The translations under genes and the position numbers were made by a program. From assembly GCA_013287265.1 (NCBI GenBank), contig JABDEC010000002.1, positions 10,105 to 74,104 on the forward strand: a stretch of 64,000 bases of DNA, in the 5' to 3' direction. Below, one piece after another: positions 1-22,241 of the stretch. The DNA comes from Candidatus Babelota bacterium (GTDB taxonomy: Bacteria > Babelota > Babeliae > Babelales > JABDEC01). The first letter of the stretch is position 1. Every line of letters starts with the position of its first letter. The notes under the pieces are model-generated. The model worked only from the letters and a program-made list of their open reading frames with translations. It did not search any database and had not been told where the DNA came from.

Positions 1-1190
1 CATCTGATTTAGGCGCAAAGGGAGAAGAAAATACGCCTTTAATTTGTGAGTTAAAAATTATAAAAGATTCGGGAATAAGAAATTCTACAATAATAATTGA
101 TGATATTAGATACTCTCAACCAAAATATATCGTGGACAAGCATCTTGAAAAGAATCCACAAGACATTTCAGCATGTGGTTATCCGACATTAGATGAAATT
201 AAAAAAGCCATTCTTGAGATAAATCCGAATTATAAATTAATTATTTATGGCGATATGGCAATTGCATACACAAAAGAAATTGAACTTTCTGATGTAATAA
301 AAGCAATTACAACAAGCAGATTTAAAGATTTAAATGAAGAATCAAGCGAATTAATTGAAACAGAAAAAACAATTTCACATGCAAAAGACACGGAAAAAGA
401 AACTATTAATTATTTAATGAAATTCAAAGACCCTCAAATTTTCACAATGCATTATAAACTATGGAATGCATTACTTTTATTAAAATCTGAACATAAACAA
501 GAAGCTTTAAATATTTTAAATAAAGTAAAATCTTTCGGCTTTAACAATTCTAGAATATCAAAATATTGCGATCAAAAAGATACAAAACAAATTATTGATG
601 AATTGTACAAAGATATAAATGCAATAATTTCGCCTGAAGAGCGACAAATGATTTTACAAAAAGGAGGAAATCCTGTTTATGGAGAGATTAAATACGAATC
701 ATTACAAACAATATTTAATGATTTAAATATTAATCAAAATGATATTTTTTATAATTTAGGTTCGGCAATTGGCAAACCACTTGTTCAAGCTTATTTGAAT
801 TTTCCATTTAAAAAAGTTGCGGGAATTGAATTATCTAAAACAAGATTTCAAAATTCAATGAAAGTTAAAGAAGAATTAGAAAAAAGAAATTTAATAGATG
901 TAAGTAGAAAGTTTGAATTAATTAATCAGGATTTTACTGAATCAAATATTGATGACGCAACTGTAATTTATACAAATTCAGCTTGTTTTCCCGATGAATT
1001 GATGAAAAAAATTACTCAAAATTGCTCAAAATTAAAAACTGATCTTAAAGTTATAACTTTAAAAATATTATCTGATTATCAAAATTATGGATTTATTTTA
1101 GAAAAAGAATATTCATTACCAATGTCTTGGACTGAAAATTCATTTTATCCGGTTTACGTTTATAAATTAAAGAAGGAAAAAAATGTTTAA
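1..1190 (+). CDS. Multidomain methyltransferase-like protein, 5' end outside the window: a paralog of the next gene fused to a C-terminal DOT1-like SAM-methyltransferase domain
   Basis: Frame 3 is open from nt 3, so the track start at 132 is an internal GTG. nt 3-600 aligns with the C-terminal half of 1183..2319 (IIIDDIRY/ILIDDMRF, YPTLDEIKK/YPTLQDIKK, HYKLWNALLLL/HFKLWNALTLI). From nt ~675 the motifs VYGE...DIFYNLGSAIGKPLVQ...AGIELS...QDF...VIYTNSACFPDEL are colinear with the DOT1 motifs VYGE / DLGSGVGQVVLQ / GVE / GDF / VIFVNNFAF. Confidence 0.7.
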   Translation, partial: SDLGAKGEENTPLICELKIIKDSGIRNSTIIIDDIRYSQPKYIVDKHLEKNPQDISACGYPTLDEIKKAILEINPNYKLIIYGDMAIAYTKEIELSDVIKAITTSRFKDLNEESSELIETEKTISHAKDTEKETINYLMKFKDPQIFTMHYKLWNALLLLKSEHKQEALNILNKVKSFGFNNSRISKYCDQKDTKQIIDELYKDINAIISPEERQMILQKGGNPVYGEIKYESLQTIFNDLNINQNDIFYNLGSAIGKPLVQAYLNFPFKKVAGIELSKTRFQNSMKVKEELEKRNLIDVSRKFELINQDFTESNIDDATVIYTNSACFPDELMKKITQNCSKLKTDLKVITLKILSDYQNYGFILEKEYSLPMSWTENSFYPVYVYKLKKEKNV

Positions 1191-2319
1191 AAAAAAGTTA
1201 ATAGATTTCTTTCAAAACTTATTAATCTCATATTCCGTTCGTCCTGAGTGCCGCACGAAGTGCGGTGTATCGAAGGATGAAAAGTTGTGTTCATGGATTC
1301 GATACGTTTTGTTTCACAAAACACTCACCACGAACGGTATTTTAAAAATAAACTATTTAGTAAGGGATATTTTTCTATTTGGGTTCTTATTTATTAGCAC
1401 TTTTTCCTATTCAAAAAATGTTTTGCAATTTATGCCGGCAAAAGATTTTGAAAGTAGCCAGGCAGATGGACAATTATCAAAATTCTTTTTAAAACATTTG
1501 GAAATGGTTTTTAAACCAGATGTTTTTTTTGAAACAGGTACTTTTAAAGGTTTAACAGCCTTTAATGCAAGCAATTTTTTTAAGGAAGTTTATACAACTG
1601 AATCAAATCAAAATTTATATAATAATTTTTTACAAAAATTCTCACATATTAAGAATATTTACCCTATCTTAGGCAATTCTGGCGAAATTATGAAATTTGT
1701 AATAAATAAGCTAAATAACAAAAAAGTTATATTCTGGCTCGATGAACATGAAGATGAAAGATCTACACCAATTTTAGAAGAATTAAAAGCAATAAAAAAT
1801 GCCAATTTAAAAGACCCGGTAATTTTAATTGATGATATGAGATTCTTTCAACCAAAAACTATTCAAGAATTGATTAATAAAAATTATTACGCAATTAATT
1901 ACCCAACCTTGCAGGATATAAAAAAATTAGCAATAGAAATTAACGCTGATAATGAATTTTTAATTTATGGAGATATCATAATGATTTTCCCAAAATCATT
2001 AAATATTGAAATTCCAGAAATAATTAGAGTTATGACACACAGCCAAATGTACGATGAATCTGACAAATCGTTAGAAATAAAACAAATGGAAATGAAATTA
2101 ACAAAAATAAATGCCCTAGAAAAAACAGCAATTAAACAATTATATAAATTATTTTATTATCCTGAATTGAATTTAGTTAATCGCCATTTCAAATTATGGA
2201 ATGCATTGACGTTAATTGGAGAAAAAAAATTTAATGAAGCAGAAAATATTTTAAAAAGTATTAATGTACATTCAACAAATATTGAACGCATAAATTTTTA
2301 TATTAATCTTTGCAATTAA
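1183..2319 (+). CDS. Putative class I SAM-dependent methyltransferase-like protein with a C-terminal helical repeat; the N-terminal signal-like region is interrupted by a palindromic element
   Basis: FFETGTFKGLTAF...VIFWLDEH...PILEELKAI...ILIDDMRFF resembles Rossmann methyltransferase families of the CmcI/TylF type. It is a paralog of ORF 1..1190. The start codon is uncertain. Confidence 0.55.
   Translation: MFKKKLIDFFQNLLISYSVRPECRTKCGVSKDEKLCSWIRYVLFHKTLTTNGILKINYLVRDIFLFGFLFISTFSYSKNVLQFMPAKDFESSQADGQLSKFFLKHLEMVFKPDVFFETGTFKGLTAFNASNFFKEVYTTESNQNLYNNFLQKFSHIKNIYPILGNSGEIMKFVINKLNNKKVIFWLDEHEDERSTPILEELKAIKNANLKDPVILIDDMRFFQPKTIQELINKNYYAINYPTLQDIKKLAIEINADNEFLIYGDIIMIFPKSLNIEIPEIIRVMTHSQMYDESDKSLEIKQMEMKLTKINALEKTAIKQLYKLFYYPELNLVNRHFKLWNALTLIGEKKFNEAENILKSINVHSTNIERINFYINLCN
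1235..1337. repeat. GC-rich palindromic element, copy A (RPE/MITE-like), inside the 5' coding region of 1183..2319
   Basis: Terminal inverted repeats CCGTTCGTCCTGAGTG ... CACTCACCACGAACGG. Internal hairpins CCGCAC-GAA-GTGCGG and GTATCGAAGG...GGATTCGATAC. Strongly GC-enriched relative to its flanks. Same family as 4498..4581, in the opposite orientation. Confidence 0.75.
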
Positions 2320-21015: not shown

Positions 21016-22241
21016 TGTTGTTGCTGCCTTATGACTTGTCTTGCTTCCATATAAGTTGCTAAATTTCTATAAAGTTGCGCGATATCGGGCCTTGAATTTA
21101 ATGCAGCGCGCGTGGCAATTTCACCTGCTTCAACATCGCCCGCGTACCATGCAGATTTGCTTATAACTTCGTATCTTGAAAAATCATAAACTTCTTTATC
21201 CACAAATAAAAACTCATTTTTTGGATATGGCAAATCTAAAGTTCTTCTTGCAAACACATAACAAAGCGCTTTGTTATCTGGCCAATAATGCTCTGCAATT
21301 TTTAATAACGGTTCTGCTCTATGAGGACGCATCTTAAACGCCGTAGTATAATTTTCATATGCCTGATGCCATGTAAAATTTTTATCAGATTTGGATAATT
21401 CTTCAATAACTCTGGCTAATCTGTAAAAAGTTTCATAATCTTCTTCATCCCACCCTTTTTTTGTTGAGCGGATTTCATAATACTTATGGGAATTTTTTAA
21501 ATCACCAAGACATTCAAAAGTTTGTGCTAAATAAAATAAACTTCTTGTGTCATTTGGATCTTGTTGAACCTTTTTTAATAAAATTTCCCTATCTCTTTCC
21601 CAACGTTTTGTAGATTTTTCAAGACCAAATTTACTTGAACCAAGTTCAAAATAAACTTCTCTGGGAACTTTGATCTTTGTGATTGCGTTTGGTACTTCAT
21701 GAACGGCACCGACAAATCTCACGTTAAAATTGTTTCTGAGTAAACGAACATGATAAAAATCAATTTTAGGGTTAAAAATTCTTATTAAATATGCAGCATG
21801 CGTAATATCATTTTTATTTAATTCACAAAAATCTAAAAGTCCTTTTACATTATGCATATACCATTCAGCATCAGGCATTAAAAAAAAGGTAGCATTTGGA
21901 AATTTTTGTTCTGCAAATTCAAGAGCTTTATTACGAGAGATTGCAAAATCTACAAACGGTTCTTGTACAATATAACCACTTTTTACTTTATTTTTCTCAA
22001 AAAAATCTCTCACAGTTGCTATTGTGTTGTCAGTTGAACCGGTATCTAAAACTAAAAATGAATCAACTCCGGCTTTTACATAAGGGTCTAAAGTTGCATT
22101 AATTACTTTTTCTTCATTTTTTATCATTATTACAACTACTAATAATGGATCATGTTTAGATTGTACATGTAATTTAGTTTCATTACCGAAAATATTATTG
22201 ATGAAAAATAAGCTAAGTAAAAATAAATTTTTGTTAATCAT
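20997..22241 (-). CDS. GT2-type glycosyltransferase with a C-terminal TPR-like domain
   Basis: LLVVVIMIKNEEKVINATLDPYVKAGVDSFLVLDTGSTDNT is the typical MxKNE...DTGSTD GT2 subgroup signature. The C-terminal half is helical repeats (LFYLAQTFECLGDLKNSHKYYE). Confidence 0.75.
   Translation of the reverse strand: MINKNLFLLSLFFINNIFGNETKLHVQSKHDPLLVVVIMIKNEEKVINATLDPYVKAGVDSFLVLDTGSTDNTIATVRDFFEKNKVKSGYIVQEPFVDFAISRNKALEFAEQKFPNATFFLMPDAEWYMHNVKGLLDFCELNKNDITHAAYLIRIFNPKIDFYHVRLLRNNFNVRFVGAVHEVPNAITKIKVPREVYFELGSSKFGLEKSTKRWERDREILLKKVQQDPNDTRSLFYLAQTFECLGDLKNSHKYYEIRSTKKGWDEEDYETFYRLARVIEELSKSDKNFTWHQAYENYTTAFKMRPHRAEPLLKIAEHYWPDNKALCYVFARRTLDLPYPKNEFLFVDKEVYDFSRYEVISKSAWYAGDVEAGEIATRAALNSRPDIAQLYRNLATYMEARQVIRQQQQCEAKN

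Follow-up and report, generated by a model that had tools for sequence, protein, structure and literature searches.

The closest described counterparts of the locus reported here, a dense island of glycosyltransferase and methyltransferase genes in a member of the Babeliales, are found in giant viruses, in bacterial surface-glycan loci and among the glycosyltransferases that bacteria secrete. Effector and toxin glycosyltransferases are single GT-A enzymes that travel by type III or type IV secretion or by self-translocation and add one sugar per host protein. The glycosyltransferases of giant viruses are soluble, have no signal peptide and act in the host cytoplasm, and one of them, A064R of chlorovirus PBCV-1, is a fusion of two glycosyltransferase domains and a methyltransferase (PMC9614988). 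The corresponding viral gene clusters decorate the particle surface without a lipid carrier, a flippase or the endoplasmic reticulum (ER) and Golgi, and their genes are clade-specific (PMC10117803, PMC9614988). Among intracellular bacteria, Chlamydia trachomatis secretes glycogen enzymes (GlgA and others) and draws on UDP-glucose of the host in the lumen of its inclusion (PMC4829429). Here we describe an island of 20 consecutive open reading frames (ORFs) at positions 1–22,241 of a 64-kb stretch of DNA (hereafter the window) from Candidatus Babelota bacterium (assembly GCA_013287265.1, contig JABDEC010000002.1, positions 10,105 to 74,104). We propose, with about an even chance of being right, that the island is a Sec-exported, lipid-carrier-independent toolkit for glycosylation and methylation that runs on host nucleotide sugars and S-adenosylmethionine (SAM).

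The Babeliales are an order of the Dependentiae (TM6), obligate intracellular parasites of amoebae and other protists. Sec and a type II secretion system are present in the order (PMC4378268, PMC4776705), and most genes for lipopolysaccharide (LPS) biosynthesis are absent from it (PMC4776705). Chromulinavorax destructans, in which every metabolic pathway is incomplete and which takes up ATP from its host, carries signal peptides on 44% of its coding sequences and on 78% of its ankyrin proteins (PMC6561590). In Babela massiliensis, 79 of the 126 ankyrin proteins have signal peptides and were inferred to be secreted into the amoeba, type II being the only secretion system detected (PMC4378268). 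Because signals are so frequent in Chromulinavorax, they can be regarded as typical of secreted proteins in this phylum; what is unusual in the island is the enzyme class that bears them. A full-text search of the literature found signal-peptide-bearing glycosylation islands described for neither Dependentiae nor Chlamydiae, and three papers on the phylum (PMC6561590, PMC4378268 and PMC4776705) make no mention of glycosyltransferases. This type of island is apparently undescribed and common to Babeliales and environmental Chlamydiae.

ORFs are named below by their first coordinate and lie on the plus strand unless marked minus; direct family assignments are Pfam matches above the gathering score. 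The 20 ORFs are packed with hardly any intergenic space, and the first (ORF1) is open past the window start, with no in-frame stop from nucleotide 3. The original prediction took every one of them for a glycosyltransferase or a SAM methyltransferase, which is borne out for 17 of the 20; no family could be assigned to 1183, 15520 (the called start of ORF 15499) or 19140. The island encodes one GT2 and one GT10 enzyme, four GT-B enzymes resembling FUT8, NodZ and GT11 together with a distant fifth, two GnT-I-like GT-A enzymes and a GT2-TPR protein, along with eight FkbM-type methyltransferase domains and one DOT1-like domain. Judged from sequence and predicted fold, 10 ORFs are supported as Leloir-type glycosyltransferases, and up to 13 may be if three further candidates are counted.

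Equally characteristic is what the island lacks. Among its 20 ORFs we found no Pfam match to a polyprenyl-phosphate transferase (WecA/WbaP), to Wzx/Wzy, to an ABC exporter or to nucleotide-sugar genes, in agreement with the earlier remark that these 22 kb hold no carrier-lipid, flippase, polymerase, exporter or sugar-activation genes. The 20 larger ORFs scanned in other parts of the window likewise matched none of these families, and positions 1–22,241 encode no multi-span membrane protein. The mixture of GT2, fucosyltransferase-like and FkbM genes nevertheless resembles the content of O-antigen or capsule loci, and the gene survey was limited to the 64-kb window. The island could accordingly be read as a conventional locus of the LPS or capsular polysaccharide (CPS) type, with N-termini that tether cytoplasm-facing enzymes and with the missing genes elsewhere in the genome. 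We regard this reading as improbable in view of the N-termini, the homologues and the related islands.

All 18 complete ORFs from 2336 to 22241 have a signal-peptide-like N-terminus, compared with 21 of the 38 ORFs that make up the remainder of the window (Fisher p = 4e-4). This upholds the earlier statement that every complete protein begins with a basic stretch and a hydrophobic one. The rule applied is crude: a mean hydropathy of >=2.2 over 8 residues, with a core that starts by residue 20 and is <=20 residues long. DnaE, ArgRS, ThrRS, MnmA, EF-Ts, RRF, PhoH and XerC are negative by this rule. In the island proteins the hydrophobic cores span 8–15 residues, the n-region is net positive (+1 to +5) in 16 of 18, and S, A, G or C occupies position -1. 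The conserved catalytic part starts only a few residues past the hydrophobic segment, so that no stem region is present. Lipoprotein signals were considered and rejected, as no L-[AS]-[GA]-C lipobox occurs where the hydrophobic segments end. Short cores, a small residue at their end and the lack of a stem together point, within the limits of the crude rule, to a cleavable Sec signal peptide (signal peptidase I type) and not to a Golgi-type anchor. The type II anchors suggested previously are thus not what we find: such anchors have segments of about 17–22 residues, compared with 8–15 here.

A core of 8–15 residues is too short to span a membrane and is typical of Sec signal peptides, and the positive-inside rule assigns an N-in/C-out topology to a basic N-terminus with a single hydrophobic segment behind it. 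Both points tell against tethered, cytoplasm-facing enzymes of a conventional LPS/CPS-type locus, since a basic n-region with a single short segment places the catalytic domain outside. The earlier note had proposed that N-in anchors with cytoplasmic catalytic domains would refute its reading; this was mis-stated topologically, as N-in gives C-out.

The comparison of homologues bears on the same question. The same catalytic domains carry a signal in intracellular-bacterial lineages and have none in the viruses and free-living homologues that were checked. In the GT-B family, a signal-like N-terminus precedes the conserved 'E[IV]ITN..DGFG' in the closer members (P0002–P0032, which include one named Candidatus Babeliales), whereas P0033–P0062 start directly at 'M..ITN..DGFG'. 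P0039, which belongs to the second group, is encoded on a contig bearing the nucleocytoplasmic large DNA virus hallmarks TFIIS, DUF5755 and EsV_1_7_cys. A scan of IMG/VR gave 81 relatives of this family, mostly in giant-virus metagenome-assembled genomes (MAGs), with matches that begin at query residue 23–33, and translation of six viral GT-B loci revealed no signal in any of them. The 19140 family behaves alike: 26 of 30 close homologues are signal-peptide-like before 'PFPIQFSIP', those with names being Babeliales and Chlamydiota. Giant viruses account for 217 matches to this family in IMG/VR; four of the five viral genes translated start with 'MLYPITFSIP' or similar, without a signal, and in the fifth a further domain is fused upstream. 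For 12594, 23 of the 24 best database-wide homologues start 11–39 residues before 'YSQNGEDG' without a hydrophobic segment (the remaining one is marginal), and in the window protein the motif sits at residue 64, behind a hydrophobic segment.

A homologue of 19140 in free-living Mucilaginibacter adjoins a Wzx-like protein in a polysaccharide-locus context, a setting that would suit a conventional LPS/CPS-type locus. However, this protein starts at 'MKILFIS' and has no signal, so the segment is absent from the very homologue that lies in a Wzx-type locus, just as it is from 23 of the 24 best homologues of 12594. Among the homologues of three island families, those named most precisely carry the label 'Candidatus Babeliales' or 'Babeliaceae' (P0010, P0085, L090 and L100), which, taken with the low GC content and the ankyrin proteins of the window, points to the Babeliales. 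The data support the view that the N-terminal segments are a real, family-specific feature and not AT-rich noise.

Homologous islands are present in a Babeliaceae MAG (L090), in a Chlamydiae MAG (L120) and on two metagenome contigs (L003 and L004). On L004, a 345-kb ENA contig of 31.5% GC, the island comprises five FkbM, two GT2, one GT6 and one GT32 gene, a member of the GT-B family, a 16437-like-ankyrin fusion, three enzymes of the NAD-dependent epimerase/dehydratase family (one with a GDP-mannose-dehydratase-type match) and one UDP-glucose dehydrogenase. Nearly all of its N-termini are signal-like, the exceptions being a truncated first FkbM and a borderline GT-B member, and in the NAD-dependent enzymes the signal stands directly ahead of the Rossmann GxxGxxG motif. 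On the 1.3-Mb Candidatus Babeliaceae chromosome (L090, OY969927.1), GT6, GT2, two FkbM genes, a 4,6-dehydratase, an RmlD-like reductase, an RXYLT1/GT47-like enzyme, Sulfotransfer_1, Methyltransf_24 and a 19140 orthologue occur together, all with an N-terminal extension. The 1.36-Mb Chlamydiae contig (L120) has a dehydratase, a reductase, GT25 (one Pfam-confirmed, with three similar ORFs recognized by eye), GT11, GT10 (PF00852, E 2e-19), a GT-B family member, 19140, an RXYLT1/GT47-like enzyme and three FkbM domains; the GT2+TPR architecture of 20997 recurs at 18510–20618, and the island enzymes carry signal-like N-termini. The closest relative, a 178-kb JGI contig (L003), encodes orthologues of 16437 (11522–12622), 15499 (13382–14317) and 18314 as well as GT11, GT32 and a TylF-type methyltransferase.

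NDP-sugar dehydratases or reductases bear signals in three of these islands (L004, L090 and L120), and no nucleotidyltransferase, polyprenyl-phosphate transferase or flippase was found in the relatives' islands as far as they were scanned. Signal-bearing tailoring enzymes in islands without a nucleotidyltransferase fit the tailoring of pre-existing donors. The cofactors concerned, that is, nucleoside diphosphate (NDP)-sugars, NAD(P)(H), SAM and 3'-phosphoadenosine-5'-phosphosulfate (PAPS), are found in a living cytoplasm or in the ER/Golgi lumen, and not in a normal periplasm. For a conventional LPS/CPS-type locus these observations are difficult: in relatives the signals extend to soluble dehydratases, reductases, a UDP-glucose dehydrogenase and a sulfotransferase; four islands (that of the window, L004, L090 and L120) each run for about 20 kb without a carrier-lipid or export gene; and the Babeliales, as noted above, are reported to lack most LPS genes. 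The earlier judgement that this is no ordinary LPS/CPS locus is therefore supported by the missing genes, by signals on all 18 complete ORFs and by signal-free homologues elsewhere. Of the two options offered at that time, the exported one is favoured by the comparative data, namely signals on the relatives' soluble enzymes and none on viral or free-living homologues.

The sulfotransferase of L090 (15036–15920; Sulfotransfer_1, PAPS-dependent) has a signal-like N-terminus and lies inside the island. It suggests sulfated glycans, and with them one more host-type cofactor that would be needed outside the bacterial cytoplasm.

Three of the glycosyltransferases are recognized directly, as had been claimed. 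ORF 3239 (3239..4510) is a GT2 enzyme (PF00535, E 2.3e-18), and 20997 (20997..22241, minus) joins a GT2 domain (PF00535, E 5.8e-7) to TPR_17. ORF 4595 (4595..5710) is of the GT10 type (C-terminal domain PF00852, E 1.2e-8, 35.2 bits where the cutoff is 23.9); GT10 is an alpha-1,3/4-fucosyltransferase family.

The GT-B family consists of the N-terminal parts of 5700 and 7222 together with 9858 and 17509, paralogues with 42–56% mutual identity (5700 and 17509, 56%; 9858 and the other three, 42–43%); 5700 and 7222 are 67% identical. ORF 5700 (5700..7211) is a fusion to an FkbM domain (PF05050, E 1.7e-17 at residues 326–489). In 7222 (7222..9825) the FkbM domain (PF05050, E 2.7e-17) is followed by a low-complexity helical linker and ankyrin repeats (Ank_2, E 3e-45). 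ORF 9858 (9858..10826) is a further fucosyltransferase-like paralogue, and 17509 (17509..18345), which stands alone, served as the reference of the family. We gathered 64 homologues and aligned 28 (alignment A1). The four proteins gave no Pfam or NCBIfam match in this region even at E<=10, including to the GT11 model PF01531. Profiles of this family and of the GT-A family described below (A2) found no match among PDB sequences, and both families were resolved by structure prediction and Foldseek.

The AlphaFold model of 17509 (pLDDT 89.8) matches FUT8, NodZ and POFUT1/2 best among PDB structures (Foldseek E ~3e-4, probability 1.0), with a TM score of only ~0.4; the match to solved structures is thus weak, and consistent in kind. 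Against BFVD, the model matches Fut1_Fut2-like, alpha-1,2-fucosyltransferase and GT11 viral proteins (E down to 4.5e-11, TM up to 0.65). In the 28 aligned sequences H146 and D155 are invariant, and R148 and R149 are >=90% conserved; we take this HxRRxD-type motif to be equivalent to motif I of alpha-1,2/1,6-fucosyltransferases. The four proteins are a new sequence family within what is predicted to be the GT-B fucosyltransferase fold, with GDP-fucose as a putative donor. The set labelled 'GT11-like' in the original prediction survives in this form for 5700, 7222, 9858 and 17509, and its fifth member, 16437 (16437..17516), is only distantly linked to the others (hhalign against A1: 73% probability, E 3e-5, over the C-terminal 83 columns).

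One of the four paralogues, 9858, contains a 170-bp GC-rich in-frame insertion (10271–10440, up to 56% GC) that is absent from the other three and sits just before the conserved HxRR strand. A structured RNA or a repeat was rejected as an explanation: the insertion has no Rfam match, a fold z-score of +0.75 and a single copy in the window. On the viral side, a 305-residue member of the GT-B family is encoded at 10001–10918 of a 158-kb contig (ENA MEHR18-2 scaffold_95) with the giant-virus hallmarks TFIIS, DUF5755, EsV_1_7_cys, GIY-YIG and NAD-dependent ligase. An identical copy of this protein on 14 contigs suggests a widespread virus.

The two proteins previously described as GT-A-like, 2336 (2336..3232) and 20134 (20134..21015, minus; member P0150 of family A2), are 36% identical and belong to a family of 112 homologues without a match to any Pfam model. 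That description holds: the family model (pLDDT 92) has a GT-A fold, with POMGNT1/GnT-I (E 1e-8), SpsA and TarP as the closest Foldseek matches, and the alignment contains an invariant DD pair (D110 and D111). A search of 2336 against GTDB representative genome contigs gave no relative.

FkbM-type domains had been assigned to eight ORFs, and all eight assignments hold, seven by a direct PF05050 match above the gathering score (5700 and 7222, already mentioned, and the following five). On the minus strand, 10834 (10834..11796, E 5.9e-11) is 70% identical to 13577 (13577..14512, E 1.1e-7), and 11803 (11803..12585, E 3.8e-8) is 58% identical to 14589 (14589..15425, E 1.5e-9). ORF 18251 (18251..19195, E 2.8e-19) is called from 18314 on contig L002 and is signal-peptide-like from M22. 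The eighth, 12594 (12594..13601, minus; probable start ATG 13559), has an N-terminal extension and no Pfam match of its own; 16 of 25 homologues match PF05050, which makes it FkbM-related by transitivity, and 5297 representatives are found at E<=0.001. Paralogue expansion within the island is recent. NoeI, a Rhizobium enzyme, 2-O-methylates fucose. By analogy with NoeI, and from their fusion to glycosyltransferase domains in 5700 and 7222, the FkbM domains are probably sugar O-methyltransferases.

ORF1 (1..1190, 5' end off the window) is of another kind. It consists of an N-terminal part like 1183 (36% identity over 188 residues), a helical linker and a DOT1-like methyltransferase domain (PF08123, E 4.5e-21; an NCBIfam protein-lysine methyltransferase model at E 3e-8 is below its cutoff). 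Since this domain is of the protein- or histone-lysine type, ORF1 does not belong among the glycan-methylating enzymes with which it had been listed. The DOT1-like fold is eukaryote-type and rare in bacteria; in ORF1 its partner in the fusion is a domain paralogous to 1183. Rather than acting on glycans, ORF1 could be an effector that targets chromatin or proteins.

How might such a toolkit work? From the anatomy of the N-termini and the distribution of signals among lineages, the enzymes would leave the bacterial cytoplasm by Sec. They would reach the periplasm and, plausibly by type II secretion or in vesicles, the host side; this last step is suggested by the phylum literature and by the ankyrin-repeat fusions. 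Three such fusions of island enzyme families have arisen independently: 7222, the protein encoded at 5475–6866 of L004 (a 16437-like N-terminal sequence followed by ankyrin repeats) and P0107. They tie the island enzymes to a class that is considered host-secreted (PMC4378268, PMC6561590). The exported enzymes would use GDP-fucose, UDP-sugars and SAM made by the host, and sugars would be added and methylated singly, directly on the final acceptor. Because assembly would proceed residue by residue on that acceptor, no polyprenol carrier, initiating phosphotransferase, flippase, polymerase, exporter or sugar activation would be needed.

The product is most likely a fucose-containing, O-methyl-capped glycan on the bacterial surface or on secreted proteins. 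There would then be a parallel in giant viruses, which have at least two of these enzyme families in common with the island and whose particles are glycosylated in the cytoplasm of the host. Fucose and O-methyl capping are suggested by the GT10 enzyme, the FUT8/NodZ/GT11-like folds, the FkbM domains and the two fusions of glycosyltransferase and FkbM domains, and the fucosylated, O-methylated glycan put forward in the original prediction is on these grounds a reasonable one. An acceptor on the bacterium's own surface is favoured by the number of enzymes (at least 10 transferases, with 8 O-methyltransferase domains), by the expanded paralogues and by the variable content. Enzyme-family content differs strongly between related islands, which by analogy resembles O-antigen loci and the clade-specific fibril-glycan clusters of Megavirinae.

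The exported enzymes might instead be host-directed effectors that glycosylate or methylate host proteins or glycans in the cytosol or in an ER/Golgi-derived vacuole and so manipulate the host, in the manner of the effector glycosyltransferases of Legionella, enteropathogenic Escherichia coli or clostridia. The island proteins share their export signals with ankyrin proteins thought to be host-directed (PMC4378268, PMC6561590), and glycosyltransferase families are fused to ankyrin repeats. Several of the families are eukaryote-like (GT10, GnT-I-like and FUT8/POFUT-like in the island, with RXYLT1/GT47-like and GT6 in relatives), and a DOT1-like, eukaryote-type lysine methyltransferase stands at the island edge. 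Known effector glycosyltransferases, however, act singly and transfer one sugar each, and the same numbers of transferases and O-methyltransferase domains, paralogue expansion and variable content that favour an own-surface acceptor are the signature of a surface-glycan locus. Giant viruses use such enzyme classes on their own particle (PMC10117803, PMC9614988) and share two of the families by sequence, and the NDP-sugar tailoring enzymes of the relatives suggest unusual donors for a dedicated polymer. Host-directed effectors are on balance unlikely to account for the island, though their chances are far from negligible.

For the exported toolkit acting on a bacterial glycan, several points weigh on the other side. 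The signal rule is crude: it also flags TrxB, falsely, and the anchor of PBP2, and about half of the window proteins are signal-peptide-like by it. We know of no precedent for Leloir enzymes at work in a bacterial periplasm. Export itself, cleavage, passage beyond the inner membrane, the compartment, the donors and the acceptor are all inferences. The result on missing genes covers the window, and carrier-lipid or nucleotide-sugar genes may lie elsewhere in the genome. Three ORFs have no assigned function, and 9858 may be disrupted by its insertion.

A wider proposal is that Babeliales and environmental Chlamydiae export a whole Leloir pathway by Sec (glycosyltransferases and O-methyltransferases and, in relatives, NDP-sugar dehydratases or reductases, a UDP-glucose dehydrogenase and a sulfotransferase) and, with no lipid carrier or flippase, assemble a surface glycan beyond their own cytoplasm from the NDP-sugars, SAM, PAPS and NAD(P)H of the host, a mode of bacterial glycan synthesis that would not have been recognized before. 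The toolkit would be exchanged with giant viruses that share those hosts, the signal peptide being gained or lost at each transfer. We advance this broader picture tentatively and rate its chances below even.

It is also conceivable that the island is an inert, horizontally acquired block (for example from giant viruses) whose N-termini are by-products of an AT-rich composition and whose genes form no coherent pathway. The window ranges from 24 to 32% GC, and its overall figure of 26% favours Phe, Ile, Leu, Lys and Asn; half or so of the window ORFs are signal-peptide-like, two families are common to giant viruses and one paralogue (9858) has its odd in-frame insertion. Against this, all 20 ORFs are intact and tightly packed, and catalytic-type residues are invariant at 40–55% identity across two phyla. 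Signals recur at the higher GC of L004, placed exactly before the start of the conserved domain, and most housekeeping proteins of the same genome have none. An inert island is, in our estimation, the most improbable of the explanations considered.

The three ORFs without an assigned family can be placed only in part. ORF 1183 (1183..2319) has no match in Pfam (E<=10), NCBIfam or PDB sequences. From its annotated start the N-terminus is not signal-like; from TTG 1309, residues 21–35 (63–77 as annotated) are, and the long ORF start is probably wrong. Its annotated 5' end contains a GC-rich hairpin (CCGCAC-GAA-GTGCGG, ~1249–1263) right after the ORF1 stop. For 15499 (15499..16434; called from 15520 on L002), possibly a DUF1647-like GT-A enzyme, the sole hint is a weak DUF1647 match (E 0.015). 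A related domain in the protein encoded at 8888–10558 of L003 matches DUF1647 at E 4e-5, and the L003 protein fuses this DUF1647-like/15499-like domain to one resembling 1183 and the N-terminal part of ORF1.

ORF 19140 (19140..20126, motif RHYEILANGCIPYF) is highly conserved, with >832 homologues at ~50% identity; its close relatives in GTDB genomes are nearly all Dependentiae/Babeliales and Chlamydiota MAGs. Pfam, NCBIfam and PDB sequences gave no match, and hhalign against the family profiles built here was insignificant. Applied to 1183, 12594, 15499 and 16437, these sequence-based searches likewise gave nothing significant beyond the distant link of 16437 to A1 and the weak DUF1647 match of 15499. 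One homologue (P0194) is fused to a PLOD-GT domain, and this fusion and the Mucilaginibacter context are what would link the protein to glycans. That 15520 and 19140 might be glycosyltransferases, as had been suggested, therefore has a weak DUF1647 match and a PLOD-GT fusion in one homologue in its favour, and neither receives a family assignment. In Mucilaginibacter (L139, 9968–11506) the 19140 family appears to be circularly permuted: Babeliales, Chlamydiae and giant viruses have the 'PIQFSIP...RHYEILANGCIPYF' half at the front, and it stands behind the 'MKILFIS...LYGRGFT' half in Mucilaginibacter, where the protein bears a further C-terminal extension.

Beyond the island, the window encodes dnaE (25553), mnmA (39068), argS (41679), trigger factor (44877), trxB (46292), thrS (55339), xerC/D (60976) and PBP2 (61900) by Pfam, probably also tsf (43523) and frr (44134) by inspection of the translations, as well as tRNA-Lys(CTT) and tRNA-Leu(TAG) at 44772–44957. 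With housekeeping genes and tRNAs present, the window is bacterial chromosome and not giant virus; a giant-virus origin was rejected on the strength of dnaE, the aminoacyl-tRNA synthetase genes, the tRNAs, trigger factor, PBP2 and XerC. Several ankyrin-repeat proteins elsewhere in the window have hydrophobic N-termini. The first ~27 codons of the trigger-factor ORF (44877–46289) overlap tRNA-Leu, and that N-terminus is an ORF-calling artefact.

Adjoining the island, 22318–24171 (minus) encodes a 617-residue signal-peptide protein with a cysteine-rich N-terminal part, a C-terminus ending in GGFSY and no Pfam match. [quoted passage not shown] Farther away, a 912-residue protein (58215–60953, plus) carries a hydrophobic segment close to the N-terminus; part of a Sigma54-activator AAA+ domain (residues ~690–775) is the one domain recognized in it. 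The Logan assembly of run SRR8432293 (contigs L001 and L002) breaks within the island at window position ~1308 and near 4527, probably by collapse at paralogous genes; paralogue-rich islands are likely to be under-assembled in metagenomes.

If the exported toolkit is real, it would constitute a third bacterial route to complex glycans, besides lipid-carrier pathways and cytoplasmic protein glycosylation: an assembly line moved out to the host side of the membrane, where metabolites of the host supply it. Such a route would account for an elaborate and variable coat in metabolically minimal parasites without LPS and nucleotide-sugar synthesis, and a coat of this kind is probably important for phagocytosis by the protist host or for its evasion. 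It would also imply that genes have passed between giant viruses, Dependentiae and Chlamydiae, and that one and the same enzyme, by acquiring or shedding a signal, is directed each time to the same compartment. The work adds three sizeable uncharacterized enzyme families (the DGFGSQ GT-B family, the GnT-I-like GT-A family and 19140, with >800 members), and the idea can be tested in cultured Dependentiae (Babela, Vermiphilus and Chromulinavorax).

Among known systems, Wzx/Wzy-dependent or ABC-dependent O-antigen and capsule loci are similar to the island in being dense, variable clusters of GT2, fucosyltransferase-like and methyltransferase genes with paralogue turnover. The island differs from them in having no initiating transferase, flippase, polymerase, chain-length regulator, ABC exporter or nucleotidyltransferase, and in that their enzymes are cytoplasmic, whereas here 18 of 18 complete ORFs are signal-peptide-like. 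The glycogen enzymes of C. trachomatis offer the precedent of an intracellular bacterium that exports a Leloir enzyme and builds a glycan outside its own cytoplasm, as we propose for the island; they have type III signals, make a single storage homopolymer and are not encoded in one island. Legionella Lgt1-3/SetA/LtpM, NleB of enteropathogenic Escherichia coli and clostridial TcdA/TcdB are Leloir enzymes acting on host UDP-sugars in the host cytosol (LtpM: PMC6393602). Unlike the island enzymes they have no associated methyltransferases, and none of their Pfam families was matched in the island scan. The type II enzymes of the ER and Golgi (FUT8, POFUT1/2, GnT-I/POMGNT1 and the GT10 fucosyltransferases) provide the closest solved folds of the two new families and likewise have an N-terminal hydrophobic segment that separates the catalytic domain from the cytoplasm of the producing cell. 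The island proteins differ from them in having no stem, cores of 8–15 residues followed by a small residue and an identity of only 9–15%.

The giant-virus clusters (fibril-glycan clusters of Megavirinae, and A064R/A061L of PBCV-1) share with the island Leloir glycosyltransferases, sugar O-methyltransferases and NDP-sugar tailoring enzymes. Fusions of glycosyltransferase and methyltransferase occur in both (viral A064R; 5700 and 7222 in the island), and two families are shared, DGFGSQ GT-B (81 IMG/VR matches) and 19140 (217). By contrast, the island lies on a bacterial chromosome beside dnaE, aminoacyl-tRNA synthetase genes and tRNAs, and its signal-bearing enzymes must cross at least one membrane to meet host donors. 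The island thus combines traits of surface-glycan clusters, of the autonomous glycosylation of giant viruses and of secreted bacterial glycosyltransferases.

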